Shown here piece by piece: positions 1,843-26,477 of a stretch of 64,000 bases of DNA. Made by a program: the position numbers and the translations under genes. The notes under the pieces are model-generated. The model was not told the origin of the DNA and ran no database searches. It saw only the letters and a list, made by a program, of their open reading frames with translations. Position 1 is the first letter of the stretch; each line of letters starts with the position of its first letter. Source of the stretch: an uncultured bacterium (lineage in GTDB: Bacteria; Patescibacteriota; Minisyncoccia; UBA6257; 2-01-FULL-56-20); contig OY970358.1 in assembly GCA_963718575.1 (NCBI GenBank), positions 578,172-642,171 of the forward strand, in the 5' to 3' direction.

Positions 1843-2684
1843 ATGCATAGCCTTGAAAACAAAGAAATTCCGAGCGAGATTAGGGGTTGGAACTGGGGCG
1901 CATTTTTCCTGTCTTGGATTTGGGGTCTCGGCAACAATACCTATATCGCCCTCCTAGCGTTAATACCAATCGTCAATCTCGTTTTTATTTTTATCCTTGG
2001 AGCGAAGGGCAACGAGTGGGCATGGAAAAATAAAAACTGGAAAAGTGTCGAGGATTTTAAGGACGCTCAGCGCAAATGGCGCAACGCTGGATGGATTGTG
2101 TGGGGAATATCCATCTTGATTGTTCTGGCTGTAATAATCGGCGCGGCTTCTGAACGGCCCAGAATAATTCTCCGGCGGCATATCAGCCACCGCAGCAGAC
2201 AACTCAATCCGTGCCGCAAGCACCACAAACAGAAACTCCGCAACAGTTCTTTGGGGGTACATCAAATCAACCACAATCTTCGCAAGGTGCGTCAAACGAG
2301 GGTGCAACGCTCCAACAATCATCAGAAGACGGTCCTACCGCCCCGCCTTGGCCAACATCATACAACGCAACGATCGTGGAATCATATTCTTCGGGTGTCT
2401 ATAACGCCAATTACTACGTTACGTTTGATAATAAAACTTACGTTGCAAATTCTACCCAATACGTTCTTGCTGGCTTTGAAAAATATCCAATCAGCGATAT
2501 TCATCCATGGGGAGAGGTGTATATGTCGTTTTCTTGTGCGGATCAATATGAAGCAAACTACGCAGTAACCGATGCTTCTTCCGTCTATCCCTACAATACT
2601 CCGTGGATGCAAGGCGGTATCAATGGTATCGACTTATCGAATAATGAGCCAAACGAAGTTTCCTTTACTTGTGTTCAAAATTGA
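1843..2684 (+). pseudogene. Membrane-anchored secreted protein split by an apparent single-nucleotide frameshift near 2150-2155.
   Basis: The frame of ORF 1843 has a membrane N-terminus (GWNWGAFFLSWIWG...ILIVLAVIIGAAS), then degenerates into Arg/His-rich nonsense. The frame of ORF 2211 opens at 2154 as a Q/P/T-rich linker (TAQNNSPAAYQPPQQTTQSVPQAPQ...) followed by a globular C-terminal domain. Confidence 0.4.
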
Positions 2685-2921
2685 TCCGTTTCCGATAGGG
2701 ATTAAAGTCGGCTCCATTTAATTTCTCTGATTGTGTAGATATGGCCCAACTCTGGTTTGTCTCCGCGTTTGATTGAAAATTGAGACTGAAATTTTTGTCC
2801 CGATAGGTTTTCGTATTCAAAAATCGCGGTCACTTCTTGCCCATAATTTATATTATTAAAAACAATCGTTGGAGCTATCGCACTATTTCCAGATTGAATC
2901 GGATTAACTGGGCCGGAAAAA

Positions 2922-3140
2922 TTAAAGAAGTTCTGTTATTTGCGATGGACAATGACCACTTTTCTCCGTAATGTTTCTGGCGGTTGTTGTTCCAATATTG
3001 CGTAATGCGAAGTATGGATAGGAAGAAACCAATGTTAAGCGTGGTTCTTGTCCTGTCCTAAAGGCTCTTACGGCATAAGTGGCCGCAATCGCAGAGGCGC
3101 ACAATGCTAAAACACCAACGATTAGATTTGCAATGTTCAT
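2922..3140 (-). CDS. Small membrane or secreted protein.
   Basis: ORF track. Hydrophobic N-terminus. ATGA overlap with the upstream ORF 3137-3370. Confidence 0.3.
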   Translation of the reverse strand: MNIANLIVGVLALCASAIAATYAVRAFRTGQEPRLTLVSSYPYFALRNIGTTTARNITEKSGHCPSQITELL

Positions 3141-3370
3141 GAGTTAAGATTATTTCCATCCCGCAGGGCGATTTCTTCGGGCGATCCATACTCGACAATG
3201 TTAATGGTGTATGGCTCGGTCGCTTCAATAACTTTGCGCTTGTCGGCAAAATAGCCTGCCCTATCGAGAATATCTTTTGAGGCGGCAAGTTGGACGTATT
3301 CATTCTCCGCTTCCTGCGAGAGCTGAAATATCTTTGTTATGGCAGGAGCTGCGTATTGATCTGTAAACAA
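3137..3370 (-). CDS. Hypothetical protein.
   Basis: ORF track. Forms an overlapping pair with 2922-3140. Confidence 0.3.
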   Translation of the reverse strand: MFTDQYAAPAITKIFQLSQEAENEYVQLAASKDILDRAGYFADKRKVIEATEPYTINIVEYGSPEEIALRDGNNLNS

Positions 3371-3974
3371 GTCCGTACATACTCCCGAATGTTAGGTTTT
3401 GTGAGGTTCTCACTTCCTATTGCCCTAGCCGTAGCCCTATTTTCGGGGCTTGTAAGCCCTCATAGCGGCTTCCGTGGCGTTTCCCGTCTCAAGATACTCC
3501 TGCGCAAATTTCTCTTGTTTTAGGGTTAATTCTTCCCTCATTTGCCCTCATTTTACCATCTTTCTACGATGTAAGAAAAGTCGGTCTTAGCGATGTTAGA
3601 AAACTCCATTTTTTGCCGCTTTATTATTAGATAGTTTTTTTGAAGATATGGAGATTGGCCACACTTTTTTCAAGTGGCTAGCCACTTGCCGCCCCGAAGC
3701 CGAAGAAAAAAGCTAAATCACGAAGATGGTTTTTTCCGTTTTAAGATATATATTAACCTCTTAAGGCGAGAACGCCATTTACCATTGGGGTAAAAGTGAT
3801 ATTTTTTATTACTGTGTAGTTCGTAGATATAGAACTTATAAACATCTTCTGGGGCTGGCTGCGGTGTAAAAGTAAACTCTAATCCCCAATCAGTTGACAG
3901 AAGAATTGCATATTGATTATTAGGTTTTTCAACTTCATTTCCCTTTCCCCAAAAATCTCTATAGCCATATCGAG

Positions 3975-4000
3975 GGGATTTATATACAACGTTACCCTAA
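3975..4000. repeat. Left terminal inverted repeat, 26 bp.
   Basis: Exact reverse complement of 6897-6922. Confidence 0.85.
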
Positions 4001-4494
4001 CTTAAAAGTCCGTTATTAACGATTTTTTGGAACTCGCTCATATTGTACACGCCGATAAGAGCGCGTTCGGGATTGGCTTGGTCTTTGAGCCATTTCATCG
4101 CGGCAGGTTTGTAGCCGCCTCCGTCTAGTAAGATGATTGTCGGTACGCCGATTTTCATAATGTTAAAAAGCGTAAAGGGATATTTTTCGTCCACGCTTCC
4201 GGCACTCTGTTGCCACTTGCACTCAATAATAAGCCCATCGGGAAACTTCTCTTTGTTAAGGATGAGAAAATCGCACTTGCGCTGGGTTTCGTAGATGCTC
4301 GTACCACACGGCACTTGGGTAGCAAATTGCTTTCCACCTACCGCTTTTCTATTGGCGAACACTTGTTCTTTATGATCCCAAAACCTCTCATATCCCTCGC
4401 GCTTCAATATGTCTTCAATAAAACCCTCAAGGCGATTGCCTGTGTGATTTGCGCGTCCGCCGCCGTTAGGAGTAGTTTCGGATAATAAGCTCAT
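3997..4494 (-). CDS. Putative type II restriction endonuclease, a small PD-(D/E)xK nuclease, probably partner of the Dam-type methyltransferase.
   Basis: The start (MSLLSETTPNGGG) overlaps the methyltransferase stop by about 29 nt. The motif CDFLILN...IIECKWQ fits a D...ExK nuclease core. Confidence 0.45.
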   Translation of the reverse strand: MSLLSETTPNGGGRANHTGNRLEGFIEDILKREGYERFWDHKEQVFANRKAVGGKQFATQVPCGTSIYETQRKCDFLILNKEKFPDGLIIECKWQQSAGSVDEKYPFTLFNIMKIGVPTIILLDGGGYKPAAMKWLKDQANPERALIGVYNMSEFQKIVNNGLLS

Positions 4495-5347
4495 TTTCCT
4501 TGCCCCGTTGGTTCGCTTTGCATGACACCATGCGCGAAGCCGATACCTTTTCAATAGTATAGCCCTTGTAGAGCTTCCGCACAAAGGGGGTGTCGGAATT
4601 GGATAGCATGAACTTCGCGCCTTTGTCGTCTATGCGCTTGGCGAACGCCGCAAGCGCAATATGCTCCGCATCCCCGAAACCGCCGCCGGAATAGCCGCTA
4701 TAGGTTTCATGGTATGGCGGATCGAGATAAAAGAAGTCGCCCACGCGCGGCTTCAATTGGTCAAAGTTTTGTTGCACGATGTCCTTACCCTCTAAGAGCT
4801 TCGCGCACGCCCATAGGTTCGGCTCGTCCACGATAAGGGGGTTTTTGTAGTCGCCCATCGGCACATTGAAAAAGCCGCTCTTATTCACGCGATACAAGCC
4901 GTTATAGCAGGTCTTATTGAGATAGATGAAAAGCGCGGCAATAAGTACGGGGTCTTTTTCCTTGAACAGTAAAAGGCGAGCTTTCGCGTAGAACTTTGCA
5001 TCATGCTTTTTCTCCATGATTTTGAGCTGTGCAATAACCCTATCAACGTGATCACGCACCGATTGGAACGTAACGATAAGATGAAAGTTGATGTCGGATA
5101 GGAACGCCTTTTGCGGTTGCACCGCGAAGAACAACGCACCGCCGCCTAAAAATGGCTCATAGTATCGCCCGTACTCTTTTGGCATACGCTCCAACAGATC
5201 GGGGAGTATTGAACGCTTGCCACCCACCCATTTGAGAAATGGACGCGCCGCCGTTTTGGTTTCCGGCTTTTGCTCATTCGCTATGCTGGTAAGGACTTCA
5301 TCGAACGCTCCAACTAACGGCTTGTGCATTTTTGGTTCTCGGCTCAT
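4466..5347 (-). CDS. Dam-family N6-adenine DNA methyltransferase (alpha group).
   Basis: FLKWVGGKRSILPDLL and EPFLGGGALFF (motif I, FxGxG) and YLDPPY (motif IV, DPPY) read directly from the ORF. Confidence 0.85.
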   Translation of the reverse strand: MSREPKMHKPLVGAFDEVLTSIANEQKPETKTAARPFLKWVGGKRSILPDLLERMPKEYGRYYEPFLGGGALFFAVQPQKAFLSDINFHLIVTFQSVRDHVDRVIAQLKIMEKKHDAKFYAKARLLLFKEKDPVLIAALFIYLNKTCYNGLYRVNKSGFFNVPMGDYKNPLIVDEPNLWACAKLLEGKDIVQQNFDQLKPRVGDFFYLDPPYHETYSGYSGGGFGDAEHIALAAFAKRIDDKGAKFMLSNSDTPFVRKLYKGYTIEKVSASRMVSCKANQRGKENELIIRNYS

Positions 5348-6261
5348 TTGGTTAGTGCTTTATATTTGAGTGTATCATTCTGGCTCACGTTCCGCACGAC
5401 CTCTGCGAACGTGTTGCTCAATTCGCCCGTCCGCACGTTAAAGCGGTAGGTAAACTCATCAACGTATCGCTGTAGGTGCTTCCGGCTCATGTGATGATAC
5501 GTTCCGATATAGCCCCGCTTGAAGATAGCCCAAAAGCTCTCGATGCCGTTTGAGTGGATGTTGCCCTTGCGGACGTACTGCCCGCGCTCATGCCGCACTA
5601 CCTCGTGCTTGAACAGTTTGCCGATGCTCTTGTACGAGCCGAAGTTATCCGTGTAGAGGTTTGAGCCGATTTTCATGTTCTCGATGATGTGCTGTTCTAT
5701 CGTCCGCATCTTGGTATCGCTCAACACTTCCGCTTTAAGCGTGCCGCCGCGCTCCAACATTCCGAACACTGGGGCTTTCGTAGCGATGCTACGTCCTTGC
5801 GTGTGTGCCGTCCTCTTGTTCGCGTGTTTGTTTTTTTCCTTGCCGCCCACATACGTTTCATCCATCTCGATAGTGCCGAACAACTGCCCCTTATTCTGTA
5901 TCATCGCCTTGCGGATGCGATGATCCATGAACCACGCCGTCTTTTGCGTTACGCCTACCTGCGCCGCAAGGGAGATGGACGAGATGCCCTTTTTCGCGGT
6001 GGTCAAAAGGTAGATAGCGACAAACCACTTTTGCATCGGCACTTTGCTCTCGCCGAATATGGTCTTGGTCTTTATCGTGAAGTCCTTTTTGCACTTCGCG
6101 CAACGATACCGCTTGCCATCGGCGAAATGGTTGATTTTGTTGAAGCCACAATGCGGGCAATACTCGCCATCCTTGAAGCGGATTTGCTCGAAGTATTTGA
6201 TGCACGTCTGCTCGTCCTTGAAGTAGGACACGAACTCTAAGAGGGTTTTGAAGTTTGTCAT
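5344..6261 (-). CDS. IS1595-family transposase (ISXO2-like DDE).
   Basis: N-terminal zinc ribbon (CPHCG...CAKCKK) followed by a DDE domain. Likely start is MTNFKTLL at 6261 with a promoter immediately upstream. The stop overlaps the methyltransferase start (ATGA). Confidence 0.8.
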   Translation of the reverse strand: MTNFKTLLEFVSYFKDEQTCIKYFEQIRFKDGEYCPHCGFNKINHFADGKRYRCAKCKKDFTIKTKTIFGESKVPMQKWFVAIYLLTTAKKGISSISLAAQVGVTQKTAWFMDHRIRKAMIQNKGQLFGTIEMDETYVGGKEKNKHANKRTAHTQGRSIATKAPVFGMLERGGTLKAEVLSDTKMRTIEQHIIENMKIGSNLYTDNFGSYKSIGKLFKHEVVRHERGQYVRKGNIHSNGIESFWAIFKRGYIGTYHHMSRKHLQRYVDEFTYRFNVRTGELSNTFAEVVRNVSQNDTLKYKALTK

Positions 6262-6267
6262 ACCTCC

Positions 6268-6296
6268 AGTGTATAGGATCAGAATAGGGTTGTCAA
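6268..6296 (-). promoter_or_regulatory. Sigma70-like promoter TTGACA-17-TACACT, 6 nt upstream of the transposase ATG. Suggests a leaderless transcript.
   Basis: Reverse complement of 6291-6296 is TTGACA. Reverse complement of 6268-6273 is TACACT. Confidence 0.4.
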
Positions 6297-6392
6297 GTCC
6301 GAATTGGGGATAACTAAATGGGGACATAATAGGGCTATTTTTTCCAATCTTGAACTATTGATCGATTTTGATATGTAGTATAATGTAAGCAC

Positions 6393-6614
6393 ATGGCATT
6401 AAGTTCCGAAGACAAAATCATCAAAGAGGGAGAAACTGAAAAGCAGGGATTTTCGGTTACTTTTACGAACGGCACACTTGCACAGCTTGAAGAATTGAAA
6501 GAGTTTTTTAAGAAAGCCGATAAGCTCGATGTAATAAAGTTAGCCATCTCGATTTTGCAAAATGCGAAGGAAGCGCAAGAGAAAAAACCTGCGCCGACAA
6601 CGCCGCCAAAATGA
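6393..6614 (+). CDS. Small hypothetical protein inside the element, divergent from the transposase.
   Basis: ORF track. A TATAAT-like hexamer lies at about 6378-6383. Confidence 0.35.
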   Translation: MALSSEDKIIKEGETEKQGFSVTFTNGTLAQLEELKEFFKKADKLDVIKLAISILQNAKEAQEKKPAPTTPPK

Positions 6615-6615
6615 T

Positions 6616-6900
6616 ATGGCAGATCATCTCGAACATGAACAGCTTGGAGATAGAATATCGGGTAGTTTGTCCGATGATGTCTTTGAGGGCTTACAGCATG
6701 AAAAGAGCCGACTACACATCACAAAAATCGTAGAGGAATATACTAAGCACGAGGATTTTATAGAGAGAGTGAGAAAATACGCTGGACAAGAAATGGACTC
6801 GCGCCTTTTTATAAGTTCAAAGTTTTGGCTAACAACGATATTAGCCGCCTTGGTTTCAGGATTGATCGGCGGTTGGCTCGTTCACATTTTCGGACATTAG
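6616..6900 (+). CDS. Hypothetical protein with a C-terminal transmembrane helix. Its stop codon lies inside IR-R.
   Basis: In-frame ATG (MADHLEHEQ) 2 nt after the stop of the previous ORF. The listed ORF start at 6562 is an upstream over-extension. Confidence 0.35.
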   Translation: MADHLEHEQLGDRISGSLSDDVFEGLQHEKSRLHITKIVEEYTKHEDFIERVRKYAGQEMDSRLFISSKFWLTTILAALVSGLIGGWLVHIFGH

Positions 6901-6922
6901 GGTAACGTTGTATATAAATCCC
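6897..6922. repeat. Right terminal inverted repeat, 26 bp.
   Basis: Exact reverse complement of 3975-4000. Confidence 0.85.
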
Positions 6923-7477
6923 TTAAAAAATACAGATCTTCGAGCGATTAATGATGCGGAGCTTATTGAAGATGGGGCGAAAAATGTAAATCAAGAAATA
7001 ACTGAGCAGCCTCGATTAGAGGTTACGGGCCGTCAAATTCAAGAAGCCGAGTGGCTGAAAGAGTTGTATAAAAAAGTGCAACAATCTTTGCCAATTGGTA
7101 CTCAATTTAGAATCATTGGTGATTATGTCGGCGGTACATCCACTACGGACGCATCAGTATCCCGTACGGGTAAAACTGTTACAAGGGAGTATGATAATTT
7201 CCAACCCAGCGGAGATTGGAAATCGGGCATTATCGAAGAATCGCCAAATAAAGACTTAAAATTTTATGTACGTGTCGATGGTCTGCCTGATGGTCATAAT
7301 CAATACGAAATTAAAAACGTAACGCCAACCTTAGATGGAAAAGTAATGATGATATCGGGCAGGGCCACTCCCCAAACCCTTGGCCTCGCGCGCAGAACTT
7401 TCGTTACAAACATATCTTCCAAAGATAAGAATGAGATTGTGCCCAATGAAGAGCTTGCTCCCTATTACTTGAAGTGA
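6908..7477 (+). CDS. Hypothetical protein.
   Basis: ORF track. Confidence 0.4.
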   Translation: MYINPLKNTDLRAINDAELIEDGAKNVNQEITEQPRLEVTGRQIQEAEWLKELYKKVQQSLPIGTQFRIIGDYVGGTSTTDASVSRTGKTVTREYDNFQPSGDWKSGIIEESPNKDLKFYVRVDGLPDGHNQYEIKNVTPTLDGKVMMISGRATPQTLGLARRTFVTNISSKDKNEIVPNEELAPYYLK

Positions 7478-7672
7478 TTAGAATCTCGTTCGTCGGATTG
7501 ACTTAAACCAAATCTGACCCCGTTCATCCGTTATCAGGACATTGCCACCATTAGTTTGAGCTGAATATATTATAATTCGTTTATAAAAGTTTGCCACCTG
7601 TCCGGTTCGTCTCCACAAATCATTGACTAATAGTATTTATTATGTTATCCTAATCGACGGAGGATTTTGACA

Positions 7673-8683
7673 ATGCAGGTAGGAATTGAAAGCGATCCAG
7701 TTTTTCCTCTTACGTATGCTCTGCAAGTTGTCGAGCATGCTAGGCGGCAACGTCGGCGGCATCGTAACCCATCGTTGTCTTTCTTTGGAGAACGGAATCC
7801 CCGGAAGGCACTCTCGCTGGCTCTCAAGGTCATCGAGAAGCCGGAAGGGATCATTCGCGACAGGCTTTTGGGGTTGCGGGAGTACATGCCCGGCCAGACC
7901 GACATCGTCTACTCATTCGGCAAGTATCTCGCCGATCACATGAACCCGAATATCGTTCCCCAGGGCTTTGTTCTTGGAGCGCATCTGGCGCTCTATGACA
8001 TCGAGCAGGGGGTCGACAGTCGGAGTAACAAGAAGATCGGTGGGTCGCTGGCAGGTCAACAGCCAATGATCTATCGGATTCTCGAGATGGAGATTCCGCT
8101 CATCGCCCGAGCCATCTTCCCGCACGATTTTGCGGGCAAGGTGGATCGGATCACTGAAATGGTCAATGATCACGTCAACGCGAAGGTCAAGGCTGCAAAA
8201 GCTGCAGCGCCACCCGCAGTTTTGCCCAATAATCCACTCAAGGTTTACGCGGCCGCACGACGGATTGCAGACATCGCAATCGAAGTCTGGGGTGAAGAGG
8301 ATGCGTTTCTGATTGATCAACGGAAGGAGCGCGTGAACCCCTTCTATAACCAAACCACCGGCGGCCTCTTCATTGAGCAGTACTACGGCAAGCCCGGCAG
8401 CATCTGGACTCCATGGGGCAAGTGGAGTTGCTGGGGAAGCGGTTCCGGCTTCGACGAACTCATGAAAAAGTTCCTGGATCGCATCGGCAAGGTGGAGATG
8501 GCTGTCCCTGTGCGCACTACTGAAATGGGAGTTTTCGGCCCAGTTTATGCTGTACTCGAAGTTGATGGCGTTGCTCTTCCCAAGGCAGAGAATCGCGAAA
8601 GTCTTTCGTACATCGAGTACGAGGAGGCCAATCGGCTTTGGGCGGAGGTTGGCGTCGCTTATCAGTCACAATTAGTATCGTAG
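7673..8683 (+). CDS. Hypothetical protein encoded in a markedly GC-rich segment relative to its flanks.
   Basis: ORF track. GGAGG about 9 nt upstream of the ATG at 7673. Compositional contrast with the AT-rich neighbourhood. Confidence 0.5.
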   Translation: MQVGIESDPVFPLTYALQVVEHARRQRRRHRNPSLSFFGERNPRKALSLALKVIEKPEGIIRDRLLGLREYMPGQTDIVYSFGKYLADHMNPNIVPQGFVLGAHLALYDIEQGVDSRSNKKIGGSLAGQQPMIYRILEMEIPLIARAIFPHDFAGKVDRITEMVNDHVNAKVKAAKAAAPPAVLPNNPLKVYAAARRIADIAIEVWGEEDAFLIDQRKERVNPFYNQTTGGLFIEQYYGKPGSIWTPWGKWSCWGSGSGFDELMKKFLDRIGKVEMAVPVRTTEMGVFGPVYAVLEVDGVALPKAENRESLSYIEYEEANRLWAEVGVAYQSQLVS

Positions 8684-8709
8684 TTTGATCGGCTCCGGCC
8701 GATCATCAA

Positions 8710-8748
8710 CGGCGAGGCGCTTCACAGCCCTCGCCGTTTTCTTTTCCT
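8710..8748 (+). terminator. Rho-independent terminator.
   Basis: Stem CGGCGAGG / CCTCGCCG followed by TTTTCTTTTCC. A second palindrome GATCGGC-TCCG-GCCGATC lies just upstream. Confidence 0.6.
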
Positions 8749-8959
8749 GATTCAATTCCCAATATGTGTAGTAGCAGGTTTGTATCTTTAGGATTTTTGA
8801 GCCATTTGGCGCTCTTCTAGGCGCTCGCCCCACTCCAAAATGAACGATTCCAAGGCCGTTCCAATTATTTTCAACCATGTCCACAGGGTCTTATATAAAC
8901 ACAGTATTTTGTGAAACCTTCTTTTTCACCAGGAGGACTTTTTAATAACGAACGACGCA

Positions 8960-9895: not shown

Positions 9896-9961
9896 TTATA
9901 TCATAATAATATGATATAATTCTTAAAAGGTCCGGCATCCAACTAATCTCGTTATAAAAAT

Positions 9962-10120
9962 ATGGTAAGAGGAAACTTTATCGGCGCGGCGATCGTTGCG
10001 ATCATCTATACGGTCTATATCTTAGTGAAGCCGTTGGAAAGTCGCACACACGAGGCGATAGTCTTGGTGGTGCTTAATGCATTGACCATCGTGTTGTTGA
10101 GCTTTGCGTTCAAACAGTAA
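9962..10120 (+). CDS. Small membrane protein of 52 aa.
   Basis: Read directly: MVRGNFIGAAIVAIIYTVYILVKPLESRTHEAIVLVVLNALTIVLLSFAFKQ. Below the ORF-track length cutoff. Confidence 0.3.
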   Translation: MVRGNFIGAAIVAIIYTVYILVKPLESRTHEAIVLVVLNALTIVLLSFAFKQ

Positions 10121-10201
10121 AGGAGTTGTAATTTTCACTTGGGGAGGCTACTATCTTTTTAGATATTTCGGTCAGTATTTCAAAACGAAAGGGGAGCGAG
10201 C

Positions 10202-10681
10202 ATGGTATTGATGGACGGATTGCAGGAACCGGTGAACATCACTACGATCGACGACGCAACAAAAGAAGCGGTGAGCACCTTGATTGCGCAAGGATATCCC
10301 GGCGCCGAGCGATATGTCGAGAGACGTTTCTACTCTCGTTCATTCAGGAGGGGTGGCCGCCCGGTCTTTTTCCTGGGGCGAAGCCAGGAGGGGAAGGTGG
10401 CAGCCATCGGATGCATGGAGATCTATGAGCACAATAATGTCTCGACCGCCTTCATCCGTGAAGTGGTGGTTGACGGAGCGATCCGCACCGCCGAGATGGA
10501 GCGTTCCATCTTTAACCGTCTCGTTTCATGGGCAGCTTTTCTATTCCGGGTCGATGTCATCAAGGTGGATGATCGGGCGTGCCTTGTTTCGAAAGAAGTT
10601 TTTTTACAGGCGATGTTCCATCACTATGAGGGCTCTCATCTCTGGCGGCGTTCGAACCTGCCGAGCGGGGACCATCAGTAG
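10202..10681 (+). CDS. Hypothetical protein, possibly acyltransferase-like.
   Basis: ORF track. No clear motif. Confidence 0.3.
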   Translation: MVLMDGLQEPVNITTIDDATKEAVSTLIAQGYPGAERYVERRFYSRSFRRGGRPVFFLGRSQEGKVAAIGCMEIYEHNNVSTAFIREVVVDGAIRTAEMERSIFNRLVSWAAFLFRVDVIKVDDRACLVSKEVFLQAMFHHYEGSHLWRRSNLPSGDHQ

Positions 10682-22912: not shown

Positions 22913-25900
22913 ATGACTAAGAAATCTTCGCGGACGCCGCATTTTCTTGAGGGCGAGATAAAGCTTCCAGAGATGGAAGAAAAAGTGCTGGCGTTTTGGG
23001 ACGAGCATAATATTTTTGAGAAAAGTTTAGAACAGACCGCCGACGGCGCGCCGTTCACTTTTTACGACGGGCCGCCGTTCGCGACGGGACTTCCCCACTA
23101 CGGGCATATTTTGGCGTCCACGATAAAAGATGTCGTGCCGCGCTATCAGACGATGAACGGCCGCTTCGTGCGCCGCCGGTGGGGATGGGATTGCCACGGG
23201 CTTCCGATCGAAGAGCTCGTCGAGCGTGAACTCGGCATCTCCGGCAAAAAGCAGATCGAAGCGGTCGGCATCAAAAAATTCAATGAGACATGCCGGAGCT
23301 TTGTATTGAAATATGCCGCCGAATGGCGGCAAACGGTCCGCCGCATCGCGCGCTGGGTGGACTTCGATGATTCGTATAAGACGATGGATACCGATTTCAT
23401 GGAATCCGTATGGTGGGGATTCAAACAGACGTACGACAAGGGCTTGATCTATGAGGGCCGCAAGGTGTTACTCTATTGTCCGCGCTGCGAGACGCCGCTC
23501 TCGAACTTCGAGGTCGCGATGGATAACAGCTATAAGGATGTCACGGAGGAGTCGGCATATGTGAAATTTCACTTGAAAGCCGGTCAAAAATTCGGAAACT
23601 ATACGGCTAAGGATTCTGTTTACCTTGTGGCGTGGACGACGACTCCATGGACATTACCGGGAAATGTCGCACTTGCGGTAGGGAAAAATATTTTATATAC
23701 CGCACTCCGCATAAAAGACGTGCAGAAACTTTATATTGTTGCAAGTGAACTTGTTCAAAAAGTTTTTAAAGATCAAGAGATTGAAATTGTTCATGGAGAG
23801 ATAAAAGGAAAGGATCTGATTGGCCTCGAATACGAGCCGCTCTTTACTATTCCTATACTGCAATCCGAAAAATCTTATCAGGTCTATGCTGGAGATTTTG
23901 TAAATACTGATGACGGCACGGGCATCGTACATATCGCACCGGTGCACGGCGAGGACGATTATACATTAGGCGTAGCAAACGGCTTGCCGATCGTGCCGCT
24001 GCTCGACGAGCGTGGAATCTTCACTGATAAGGTGCCGGAGTTTTTACGCGGACAATACTTTAAGAAAGCGGATAGGCTGGTGATCGAGGATTTAGAGAAG
24101 CGGGAACTGCTTTTCAAAAAAGAAACCATCACGCATTCCTATCCGCACTGCTGGCGATGCGGCACGATGCTCTATTACAACGCGCTCCCGGCGTGGTTTG
24201 TGAACATTCAAAAGATAAAGCCGGGGCTGCTCGCATCGAACGAGGCCGAGATCAGCTGGTTTCCGGAGCACCTTAAGCACGGCCGCTATCAAAAGAGCGT
24301 GGAGGCCGCGCCCGACTGGAACATCTCGCGCAATCGGTACTGGGGCAATCCGGTGCCGGTATGGAAATGCGGCGATTGTGGACATGTCGAAGCGGTGGGG
24401 AGTATGGACGAGCTTTCAAAGAAGGCGGGCGGTTCGAAGAATAGCTATTGGGTAATGCGGCACGGCGAGGCGGAGAGCAATATGTTCGACATCCTCGACT
24501 CCGGCCAGAGAAAATATCTTCATCTCACGCCGCGTGGCAAGGAGCAGGTGCTGACTTCGATAGAGAAGTTCAAAAAAGAGCTGGCGCATGAGGGCAAGAA
24601 GATCGATGTCGTCATCGCGTCCGACATCACGCGCACGCAGGATACGGAACATATCGTGGCAAAGGTGCTGACGGGAGAAAAGGAGATCGCGCACGAAGGA
24701 TTGGAAGAGATCCATCTTGGGCCGACGCTCACCGGCTATCGCGATGAAAAATATGCACAGATGTTTCCCAGCTACGAGGCGCGTTTTGAGAAACAGCCGG
24801 AGGGAGGGGAGACGTTACGTGATCTCCGCGCTCGCGTGTGGAAATTTTTGAAAGAGTGCGAAGAGATCTACGCGGGAAAGAATATCCTGCTCGTGACGCA
24901 CGAATATCCTGCGTGGATGCTTTTCCAAACTGCGGAAGCGTGGAGTGAGAAGCGTGCGATCGAAGAAAAGAAAAAGCGTGATGGTGATTTTATTAGCTTC
25001 GCCGAGATTCGAAAATTGGATGTGAAAGTGGTGCCCCGCGACGACACGGGCGAGGCGGATCTCCATCGGCCTTACATCGACGACATCACATTCCCGTGCG
25101 AAAAGTGCGGCGGTGTGATGACGCGCACGCACGGAGATCTTCGATTCATGGATCGAAGCAGGCTCAATGCCGTTTGCGGAGTACCACTATCCATTCGAGA
25201 ACAAGGAAGAATTCAAAAAACATTTCCCTGCGCAGTTCGTGTCAGAATACGTCCCGCAGACGCGCGCGTGGTTCTATCTTTCGCACGTCGTGTCGTATAT
25301 TTTGTTCGGCCATGCGCCGTTCGAAAATGTGGTGACGACGGGAAATGTGCTTGGGGATGATGGTTTTAAGATGAGCAAGTCGAAGAAAAATTTCCCCGAT
25401 CCCCAATTGGTGATCGATAAGTTCGGCGCTGATAGCCTACGTTTTTATCTCATGGGTTCTGTTGCAATGCAGGCAGATGATCTGACTTTTTCCGAGAAGA
25501 GCGTCGAGAGCGTGTATCGCAAAGTGGGGATGTTGCTTACGAACGTCTATAAATATTTCGCCACGTATCGCGGGGAGGTGGCGGGAGAAATTTCCGGCGG
25601 TGGTGAAGCGACCAACGCCGCCGCAGACGACAATATTCTCGACCAGTGGATCACCGCGCGGACTGAAGAGCTGGCGGATATCGTGACGCGCTCGCTCGAC
25701 ACGTACGACACCGTCCGCGCCACGCGCGCGGTCCAGGAATACGTGGACGACCTCTCCACGTGGTATCTGCGCCGCTCGCGCAAGCGTAAGGATGCGGGGT
25801 TTTTCAGGACGATGCAGGCGTCGCTTTTGACGACGAGCCGGGTGCTTGCGCCGTTCATGCCATTTCTCGCGGAAGCGCTCCATGCGGAGCTTGCCGCGCA

Positions 25901-26477
25901 CGATGCGCCGGCGTCGGTGCATTTGGAAAAATGGCCGGAGATAGCGTTCACGTTGCCGGAAAAAGAGCGAGCGGAGCTGATGGACAGCATGACGGAGATC
26001 CGTCGTCTTGCGAGCCTCGGACTTTCTGCCCGTGCGGAGGCAAAGATCAAGGTGCGTCAGCCGCTCGCAACGATGACCGTGCGCGGCGCGGAAGCGACGA
26101 TCCGCGACGAGCGCCTCCTCGCCATATTGAAGAACGAAGTGAATGTGAAAGAGATCGTGTTCGCGCCGGAGCTTGCGAACGAGGTCGAGCTCGACACGGT
26201 CATCACGCCCGCGCTCCGCGAAGAAGGATTGGTCCGCGAAGTGGCCCGCATGTTCCAGGAGCTTCGTCAGAAGGCCGGGCTCGAACCGAAGGATAGGATT
26301 GTTGCGATGATGGAGCTACCAGAAAAGACGATGCAAGTGATCGACAGGAATGAATCTTCATTTTTAAAAGACATCGGTGCGACCGTGGTGGAATTCGGAC
26401 ACTCCGATAAATTCATTGCAGAAGAGATAGCCAAGCTCGAAGGGGAGGATGTATGGGTGGCGGTGCGGAAGGGGTAG
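22913..26477 (+). CDS. ileS: Isoleucyl-tRNA synthetase. It carries an inserted histidine-phosphatase domain and an apparent single-nt frameshift at about 25128-25140.
   Basis: HYGH (HIGH), the CP1 editing region, WKCGDCGH and then DLHRPYIDDITFPCEKCGG. After the frame change the ORF continues as EIFDSW.., MPFAEYHYPFEN and KMSKS (FKMSKSKKNF). Listed as two ORFs, 22913-25360 and 25167-26477. Confidence 0.85.
24437..25050 (+). other. Histidine phosphatase (PGAM-like) domain inserted within IleRS.
   Basis: YWVMRHGEAESN (RHGE), LTPRGKEQ, IDVVIASDITRTQDTEHIV, QPEGGETLRDLRARVWKFL and ILLVTHEYP match the branch-1 histidine phosphatase motif order. Confidence 0.6.

Follow-up and report, generated by a model that had tools for sequence, protein, structure and literature searches.

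Restriction-modification (R-M) systems have long been argued to act as selfish mobile elements, and clear autonomous R-M transposons are few. Does the 64-kb stretch of DNA analysed here (the window, to whose positions all coordinates refer unless a contig is named) contain one? The locus in question, at 3975-6922, holds a transposase gene, a methyltransferase gene and a small nuclease gene between inverted repeats. Several lines of evidence make it highly probable that this locus is an IS1595-family insertion sequence (IS) of the transporter-IS kind, carrying a DpnII-type R-M pair in one operon with its transposase. Comparison with relatives carries most of this case, and it also brings up a more tentative proposal, that the element uses its own methyltransferase to control its own promoter.

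The element occupies 2,948 bp and is bounded by perfect 26-nt terminal inverted repeats. The sequence GGGATTTATATACAACGTTACCCTAA at 3975-4000, with its outermost base at 3975, returns as an exact reverse complement at 6897-6922, with its outermost base at 6922. Allowing three or fewer mismatches, the repeat occurs just twice in the window, where shuffled sequences give an expectation of 0, and it flanks 37 related elements; the case that the initial annotation had named as a possible refutation, a generic genomic repeat, does not hold. Inverted repeats at both element ends are a feature of the IS1595 family, and they are found here and in all 37 relatives. Between them the minus strand carries, in order, the genes for the transposase (5344-6261), the methyltransferase (4466-5347) and the nuclease (3997-4494). 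The first two share 4 nt (ATGA, 5344-5347) and the last two share 29 nt (4466-4494), and these overlaps suggest that the three genes would be translationally coupled. Logan contig L001, which comes from another run, yields the same gene coordinates and overlaps in an independent gene call. The repeats also reach into coding sequence at both ends: the TAG stop of the nuclease (3997-3999) lies in the repeat at the nuclease end, and the TAG stop of a 94-residue open reading frame (ORF; stop at 6898-6900) lies in the repeat at the transposase end. The exact repeats, the two gene overlaps and the stop codons within the repeats had all been read from the sequence in the initial annotation, and all of them hold.

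The transposase has the two domains that define the IS1595 family. Its 305 residues match DDE_Tnp_IS1595 (PF12762, E 2e-41) and NF033547 (198.8 bits against a cutoff of 75), and its N-terminal zinc ribbon matches Zn_ribbon_IS1595 (PF12760, E 6.5e-10). The conserved D, D, E and K of the DDE catalytic domain and the cysteines of the ribbon are retained: C35, C38, C54, C57, D134, E241 and K248 are invariant, and D205 is present in 35 of 36 family members. An N-terminal zinc finger and 8-bp target duplications are described as traits of the family, with the zinc ribbon absent only in the IS1016 group (PMC8101967). Public annotation of the source contig lists a longer transposase of 327 residues (5344-6327) and a methyltransferase of 287 residues. 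The start at 6261 used here agrees with relatives, and the 327-residue start would put the conserved promoter described below within coding sequence.

The methyltransferase and nuclease each have the hallmarks of a type II R-M enzyme. The former, of 293 residues, is an N6-adenine DNA methyltransferase of the Dam family (D12 class), with matches to PF02086 (E 4.5e-56) and TIGR00571 (279 bits against a cutoff of 114.85); these profiles and a DPPY motif account for the catalytic and S-adenosylmethionine-binding motifs expected of such a methylase. Its closest solved structure is DpnM (2DPM, E 5e-57), the GATC methylase of the DpnII system, followed by E. coli Dam (1e-30). The nuclease is a separate protein of 165 residues that matches PDDEXK_11 (E 3.5e-37) and is a putative restriction enzyme, distantly DpnII-like, of the PD-(D/E)XK kind. 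Its catalytic site is intact, with D75, E91 and K93 (D...ExK) invariant in 40 of 40 sequences, which disposes of the concern that this ORF might lack catalytic residues or homologues. A structure model with a mean predicted local distance difference test (pLDDT) score of 85 places its fold closest to type II restriction enzymes; these relatives came from a fold search, and a sequence search against the PDB gave no match. The earlier assignment of the three co-oriented genes to an IS1595 transposase, a Dam-type methyltransferase and a PD-(D/E)xK nuclease is thus supported by Pfam and NCBIfam profile matches.

The link to DpnII is closer for the methylase than for the nuclease. Against the Pfam DpnII family (PF04556) the nuclease scores 20.2 bits, with a cutoff of 23, over profile positions 141-217 of 278; on this score it is related to the DpnII family and is not a member by the Pfam rule. 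Several nuclease homologues have a precomputed DpnII match, and one is named a DpnII-family restriction endonuclease by NCBI. By resemblance, the cargo looks like a DpnII-type type II R-M pair. Moreover, the pair probably recognises GATC, as indicated by the similarity to DpnM, the DpnII-like traces in the nuclease and the covariation with a promoter GATC (see below). Methylase-nuclease pairs at 32-37% identity are also found without a transposase in viral contigs (L104 and L106), which fits capture of a pre-existing R-M pair by the element.

Evidence for mobility comes from the wider lineage. A broad search with the transposase found 7,805 homologues at E <= 1e-20. A transposase scan of one genome per species gave 80 loci, and at 18 of these the methylase and nuclease come next after the transposase; identity to the window proteins is 56-82% for each. 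All 18 have one repeat arm at the nuclease stop and the other ~80 to 1,100 nt upstream of the transposase. Searching the loci with the repeat consensus GGGAACTATATACAAAGTTACCCT (24-26-bp terminal repeats) delimits 37 complete related elements of 1.97-8.3 kb, and 18 of the 37 carry the trio in the same gene order. Perfect 8-bp direct repeats, 83% A+T, flank 33 of these elements; the remaining four lack a target duplication, and an 8-bp duplication is also present around L086. The 8-bp target-site duplication expected of the IS1595 family is therefore found at the level of the lineage, and the proposal in the initial annotation of a mobile unit with transposase-linked R-M genes is borne out by these counts. 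The AT-rich duplications seen in relatives allow transposition behaviour to be inferred for the window copy: its zinc-ribbon/DDE transposase would recognise the terminal repeats, insert into AT-rich targets and make 8-bp duplications.

Hosts of the lineage include Paceibacterota, Saccharibacteria, Moraniibacteriota, Doudnabacteria, Desulfobaccales, Gammaproteobacteria, Bdellovibrionales, Acidobacteria, Planctomycetes and Verrucomicrobia. The smallest R-M elements (2.39-2.43 kb) are reduced to a repeat, ~80-125 nt with the promoter, the three genes and a repeat. Over 19 trio elements the pairwise identities of the three proteins average 66, 63 and 64%, much the same level for each, and they are correlated, with Spearman coefficients of 0.68, 0.41 and 0.39, as expected of genes that evolve as a unit. 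A deeper branch (L099 and L100) keeps the gene order at 42-47% identity for all three proteins, with the transposase at 44-47%, and the terminal repeats of L099, which begin GGTAACTATATAC, are related to those of the family. At the other extreme, a Joint Genome Institute (JGI) contig, L084, has the same core at 96.7% nucleotide identity to the window. Between these two copies the ratio of nonsynonymous to synonymous substitution rates is 0.028 for the transposase, 0.038 for the methylase and 0.034 for the nuclease, and values of ~0.03-0.04 indicate strong purifying selection on the whole trio. At its nuclease end L084 shares the repeat with the window, and the match breaks off exactly past the last base of that repeat, where a different flank follows. 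The same element is thus seen in different genomic contexts, as evidenced by the L084 flank, the many host phyla and a phage-like contig. Judged by these comparisons, the window element is a mobile member of the IS1595 family, belonging to a large lineage spread over many phyla and phage-like contigs.

Two arrangements within the lineage deserve separate description. In the phage-like contig L090, of a set (L090-L093) 43-45 kb long, a 2.39-kb R-M element at 2623-5015 precedes a terminase large-subunit gene by ~1.2 kb; records show the identical nuclease protein on 24 contigs, and the L090 copy has no direct duplication. In L016 (10247-10302), two different family members stand back to back, the first ending at 10270 and the second beginning at 10279, separated only by the 8-bp CTAATTTG, which doubles as the duplication of the first element.

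How is the operon expressed? The promoter proposed in the initial annotation, TTGACA, 17 nt, TACACT, is present on the minus strand at 6296-6268. This sigma-70-type sequence ends 6 nt before the transposase ATG at 6261, and it is family-wide: alignment of upstream regions shows a box (A)CTTGACAACCCT, a 17-nt spacer and a TAnnnT hexamer in nearly all elements. In elements whose transposase directly follows the promoter, the ATG lies 6-8 nt past the hexamer, so the transposase mRNA should be leaderless. Five R-M elements have the same promoter farther upstream, before an extra small gene. One conserved promoter would drive all three genes from such a leaderless message.

The promoter spacer of the window element contains GATC (6277-6280), between the -35 and -10 elements. 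A TGATC occupies a fixed spacer position in 24 of 24 methylase-carrying elements of the clade (the 18 genome loci, the window element, L084, L088, L090, L095 and L097), with variation in the four bases that precede it, and GATC is found at that position in none of the 20 methylase-free elements sharing the -35 box. Two elements deserve mention here. L007, without a methylase, has GATA at the spacer position, although a neighbour-joining tree, which has no support values, places it among the R-M elements, and L086, which retains a 25-codon methylase remnant, has no GATC in its promoter spacer. A naive count gives a Fisher p of ~4e-12, inflated by relatedness; independent events linking GATC to the methylase are probably only a few. 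The covariation of GATC and methylase is read as support for GATC specificity, and it suggests that expression of the operon is gated by the element's own methylation.

There is a precedent for such control. The transposase promoters of IS10 and IS50 have a GATC next to the -10 element and depend on host Dam. The window element likewise has a GATC within its transposase promoter; IS10 and IS50 use host Dam, whereas the present element would bring its own methylase. In the resulting model the element's methylase would mark the spacer GATC, and expression of the transposase and of the R-M genes would depend on methylation state: the operon would fire in an unmethylated host or just after replication, and would quiet once fully methylated. 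This self-gating is put forward tentatively, with somewhat more doubt than belief.

A different sequence stands at the place of the GATC in the spacer of many methylase-free members (L026, L027, L029, L031, L036, L044 and others), namely a palindrome of ACCCTA, 4-8 nt and TAGGGT. The terminal repeat has ACCCTA at its inner end too, which suggests that in these members the transposase might bind its own promoter.

Several observations weigh against the picture of a mobile, self-gated, DpnII-type unit drawn so far. Promoter-like matches in the region are no more numerous than in shuffles. The association of GATC with the methylase is partly phylogenetic, the R-M carriers being largely one coherent clade in the same unsupported tree, and the distant trio elements L099 and L100 use another promoter without GATC. 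The nuclease falls below the Pfam DpnII threshold and, at 165 residues, is shorter than the 278-position profile. The window shows no depletion of GATC (503 sites, with 472 expected from a Markov model), although this count is considered uninformative. Finally, the window holds a single copy of the element, and that copy lacks an 8-bp target duplication.

The contribution of the R-M pair to the life of the element can be read in more than one way. By killing any cell from which the element is lost, the pair would stabilise that element, and the pair may also restrict incoming unmethylated DNA; the transposase, for its part, would move the pair between replicons, phage-like ones included. A narrower reading holds that the pair is mainly an addiction module that retains the element by post-segregational killing, with phage protection marginal or absent. 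In accord with this, the pair rides a selfish element, also inside a phage-like contig, and GATC is not avoided in the host window. Moreover, cooperation between IS and R-M systems through restriction-dependent selection has been demonstrated experimentally (PMC3031569). However, the present results do not distinguish addiction from defence, and one role does not preclude the other. A predominantly addictive role is a serious contender that falls short of an even chance.

The missing duplication leads to the insertion site, where the two junctions differ. The element is flanked by ATATCGAG on the left and TTAAAAAA on the right. On the right it truncates a host gene (6923-7477, plus strand) that has lost its first 12 codons: the homologues P0269, P0271 and P0272 align to the right-flank frame from their own residue 13, and P0273 aligns from residue 21. 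In contig L089 the gene is uninterrupted, and similarity to the window starts exactly at 6923 in both tblastn and blastn (TTAAGAAA in L089 versus TTAAAAAA in the window), which shows that the element inserted cleanly after codon 12, at an AT-rich octamer of the sort usual for the family. Neither the 12 lost codons nor the tRNA end found ahead of them in L089 occurs anywhere in the window. The target-site check suggested in the initial annotation accordingly succeeds in part: the right boundary is confirmed against an uninterrupted gene, but the 8-bp duplication is absent from the window copy.

On the left, a reading frame without a start codon (3724-3974, minus strand) runs in frame with the TAG of the repeat. 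This frame bears no relation to the upstream part that the disrupted gene should have there, and a homologue search with it gave none. Readthrough or recoding of the in-frame repeat TAG was considered and dropped, because the flank is without homologues and the surrounding region contains phage pseudogenes with frameshifts. These are fragments of a phage terminase small subunit at 3137-3541 on the minus strand (phrog_51, E 6e-12; phrog_2538, E 2e-8), and they suggest a decayed prophage or island to the left of the element. The left junction has no similarity to the flanks of phage contig L090, and blastn of window 3000-8000 against a phage database returned nothing.

Logan contig L001 covers 3975-8909, is identical to the window across the element and differs only at 8856-8879. 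Its end falls exactly at 3975, which is what a branch in an assembly graph would produce. The simplest readings are that the junction at 3974/3975 was rearranged, by IS-mediated adjacent deletion or by recombination and possibly as a polymorphism, or that it was misjoined in assembly. The window copy would have entered at TTAAAAAA after codon 12 of the host gene, and its nuclease-side junction would have changed later or been misassembled. If the junction were purely an assembly artefact, the true genome would have a normal duplication of TTAAAAAA; this would explain the lack of a duplication in the window, the break of L001 exactly at 3975 and the absence of the 5' end of the disrupted gene. 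Yet the 881,652-bp source contig spans the site, the absence of a duplication from 4 of the 37 relatives indicates that end rearrangements do occur, and a junction polymorphic in the population would break the Logan contig likewise. We consider the artefact unlikely, while giving it appreciable weight.

The surroundings of the element are consistent with a variable site. Its size, together with genes for ArgRS, IleRS, GyrA and an Nramp transporter, marks the source contig as a small bacterial chromosome. Synteny with a related genome, L082, is confined to window 11.6-22.3 kb, plus short matches at 9944-10121 and 7503-7616; apart from these, L082 has nothing like the window below ~7500, and no empty site. 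This pattern indicates that the element sits in a variable island. An exact search of JGI metagenomes with the right flank, aimed at an empty site, gave nothing; a protein search was what led to the uninterrupted gene in L089.

A third alternative treats the methylase and nuclease as helpers in transposition rather than as an R-M system, with the nuclease cutting the second strand at the element ends, like TnsA of Tn7, and the methylase marking the ends. The generic PD-(D/E)XK fold of the nuclease, from the superfamily to which TnsA belongs, would allow this, as would the presence of three co-evolving genes in one operon. However, members of the lineage without the R-M pair carry DUF5343, DUF5655, P63C or unknown cargo and still have duplications, which indicates that the cargo is unnecessary for transposition; perfect 8-bp duplications flank L007, L018, L020 and L024-L037, all without methylase or nuclease. 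Dispensable passenger genes within terminal repeats are what distinguishes a transporter-IS. Furthermore, the terminal repeats lack any GATC, the methylase has its nearest relative in DpnM, itself an R-M enzyme, and methylase-nuclease pairs exist without a transposase. A helper role is very improbable on this evidence. Least credible of all, to the point of rejection, is that the repeats are crossover sites of a Hin/Gin-type invertible switch: reading frames do run outward from both repeats, but no invertase gene is present, L001 passes both inner repeat boundaries in one orientation only, and the same repeats in relatives are flanked by 8-bp duplications at unrelated sites.

Two small divergent ORFs fill the rest of the element, as the initial annotation had described. 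The first encodes 73 residues (6393-6614, plus strand). The second encodes 94 residues (6616-6900, plus strand; 112 residues if begun at 6562), starts 1 nt after the stop of the first and has a hydrophobic C-terminal segment that by eye is a possible membrane helix. Neither has a family match in Pfam, NCBIfam, PADLOC or PHROG. The closest relatives, L088 and L084, lack these ORFs, and both diverge from the window at 6315: L088, whose transposase is 91% identical, has its repeat ~75 nt upstream of the ATG, and L084 carries other DNA in their place. That upstream DNA (L084 1-362) is unrelated to the window from 6315 outward and contains no repeat; its start resembles by eye the 3' part of a tRNA gene, and ARAGORN finds no complete tRNA there. 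L004 has two ORFs alike in size, order and orientation, with weak similarity in single comparisons (E 4e-4 for the 73-residue and 0.002 for the 94-residue protein). From their distribution, the two small ORFs are variable accessory cargo, outside the conserved core.

A possible promoter of the 73-residue ORF is visible by eye at 6358-6384 (TTGATC, 15 nt, TATAAT, with the ATG 8 nt on). It has a GATC in its -35-like hexamer (6360-6363), and the promoter scan missed it owing to its short spacer. Other members carry different accessory genes. For example, L005, L012, L014, L015 and L017 encode, on the opposite strand between repeat and transposase, a protein of 98-139 residues with a duplicated Cys/His-rich motif (roughly C.HG..AP...H.SQAG..RHKC.VCAY..G, twice) and no Pfam match; this protein may be a zinc-binding regulator. 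Elsewhere in the window, at 22913-26477, IleRS is covered by two ORFs that overlap in different frames (22913-25360 and 25167-26477), with a histidine-phosphatase domain (His_Phos_1, residues 513-679) between the halves of the catalytic domain, an arrangement that might reflect domain insertion, a frameshift or a split gene.

Among known systems, the DpnII system resembles the cargo, having in DpnM the closest counterpart of the methylase and showing weak family similarity to the nuclease. It differs in that the present nuclease corresponds to only part of the DpnII profile and that no second methylase is found here. The ends of the element, GGGATTTAT, are similar to those of the ISNwi1 subgroup of IS1595, which has ends of the form ggnnatTAT, an 8-bp duplication and members with passenger genes. 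The duplication and the passenger genes of the present lineage agree with this; assignment to the subgroup is a lead only.

The carriage of passenger genes by IS1595 elements, noted in the initial annotation, is well founded. Transporter-IS form an established class; according to a preprint from the curators, only the IS1595 and IS66 families have so far been seen to contain them. The IS1595 transporter-IS tISCpe8 (Clostridium perfringens) and MTnSag1 (Streptococcus agalactiae) have ~25-bp repeats and 8-bp duplications (PMC5704250), and they share with the present lineage an IS1595 DDE transposase and passenger genes inside the repeats. Their cargo consists of antibiotic resistance and mobilisation genes, whereas the present lineage carries a methylase-nuclease pair overlapping the transposase gene. 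Unlike them, it also ends its nuclease gene within the repeat, has a promoter GATC and is distributed mostly among uncultivated phyla and phage-like contigs.

A second precedent comes from the R-M side. Reviews count IS and transposons among the carriers of R-M systems, and Furuta, Abe and Kobayashi (2010) described in Neisseria gonorrhoeae NCCP11945 an R-M unit that is bounded by 26-bp inverted repeats, has an 8-bp target duplication and includes a transposase-like gene (COG3677) (PMC2853133). The likeness to the present lineage lies in R-M genes placed between inverted repeats of that length, the duplication and a transposase-like gene within the unit. The gonococcal unit is a single case, with a truncated type IIG gene, an S subunit and a transposase that is probably inactive. 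In contrast, the present lineage has an intact type II pair and transposase, is under strong purifying selection and is represented by dozens of independent insertions.

The initial annotation had called such a unit "not commonly described". Given the transporter-IS class and the gonococcal unit, only part of that claim stands: this is a new, unusually clear and widespread lineage of an already known kind of element. A search of the literature on PDDEXK_11/PF20472, and on IS1595 with Patescibacteria and R-M, found no account of the lineage or of the link to a promoter GATC; ISfinder and REBASE lay outside that search.

The lineage provides many independent insertions with clean duplications, a transposase gene that overlaps the R-M genes, and selection on all three. 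Its carriers are candidate-phyla-radiation bacteria, whose genomes are tiny, as well as several other phyla and phage-like contigs. For annotation, triplets listed as an IS1595 transposase plus a Dam methylase plus a hypothetical protein represent one mobile unit. The lineage also offers a simple case in which a mobile element may use the methylase it carries to control its transposase. If this is true, firing in an unmethylated host would permit transposition and the establishment of methylation, and self-gating, together with a leaderless mRNA translatable in many hosts and with carriage by phage-like replicons, would explain the spread of these elements over distant phyla.

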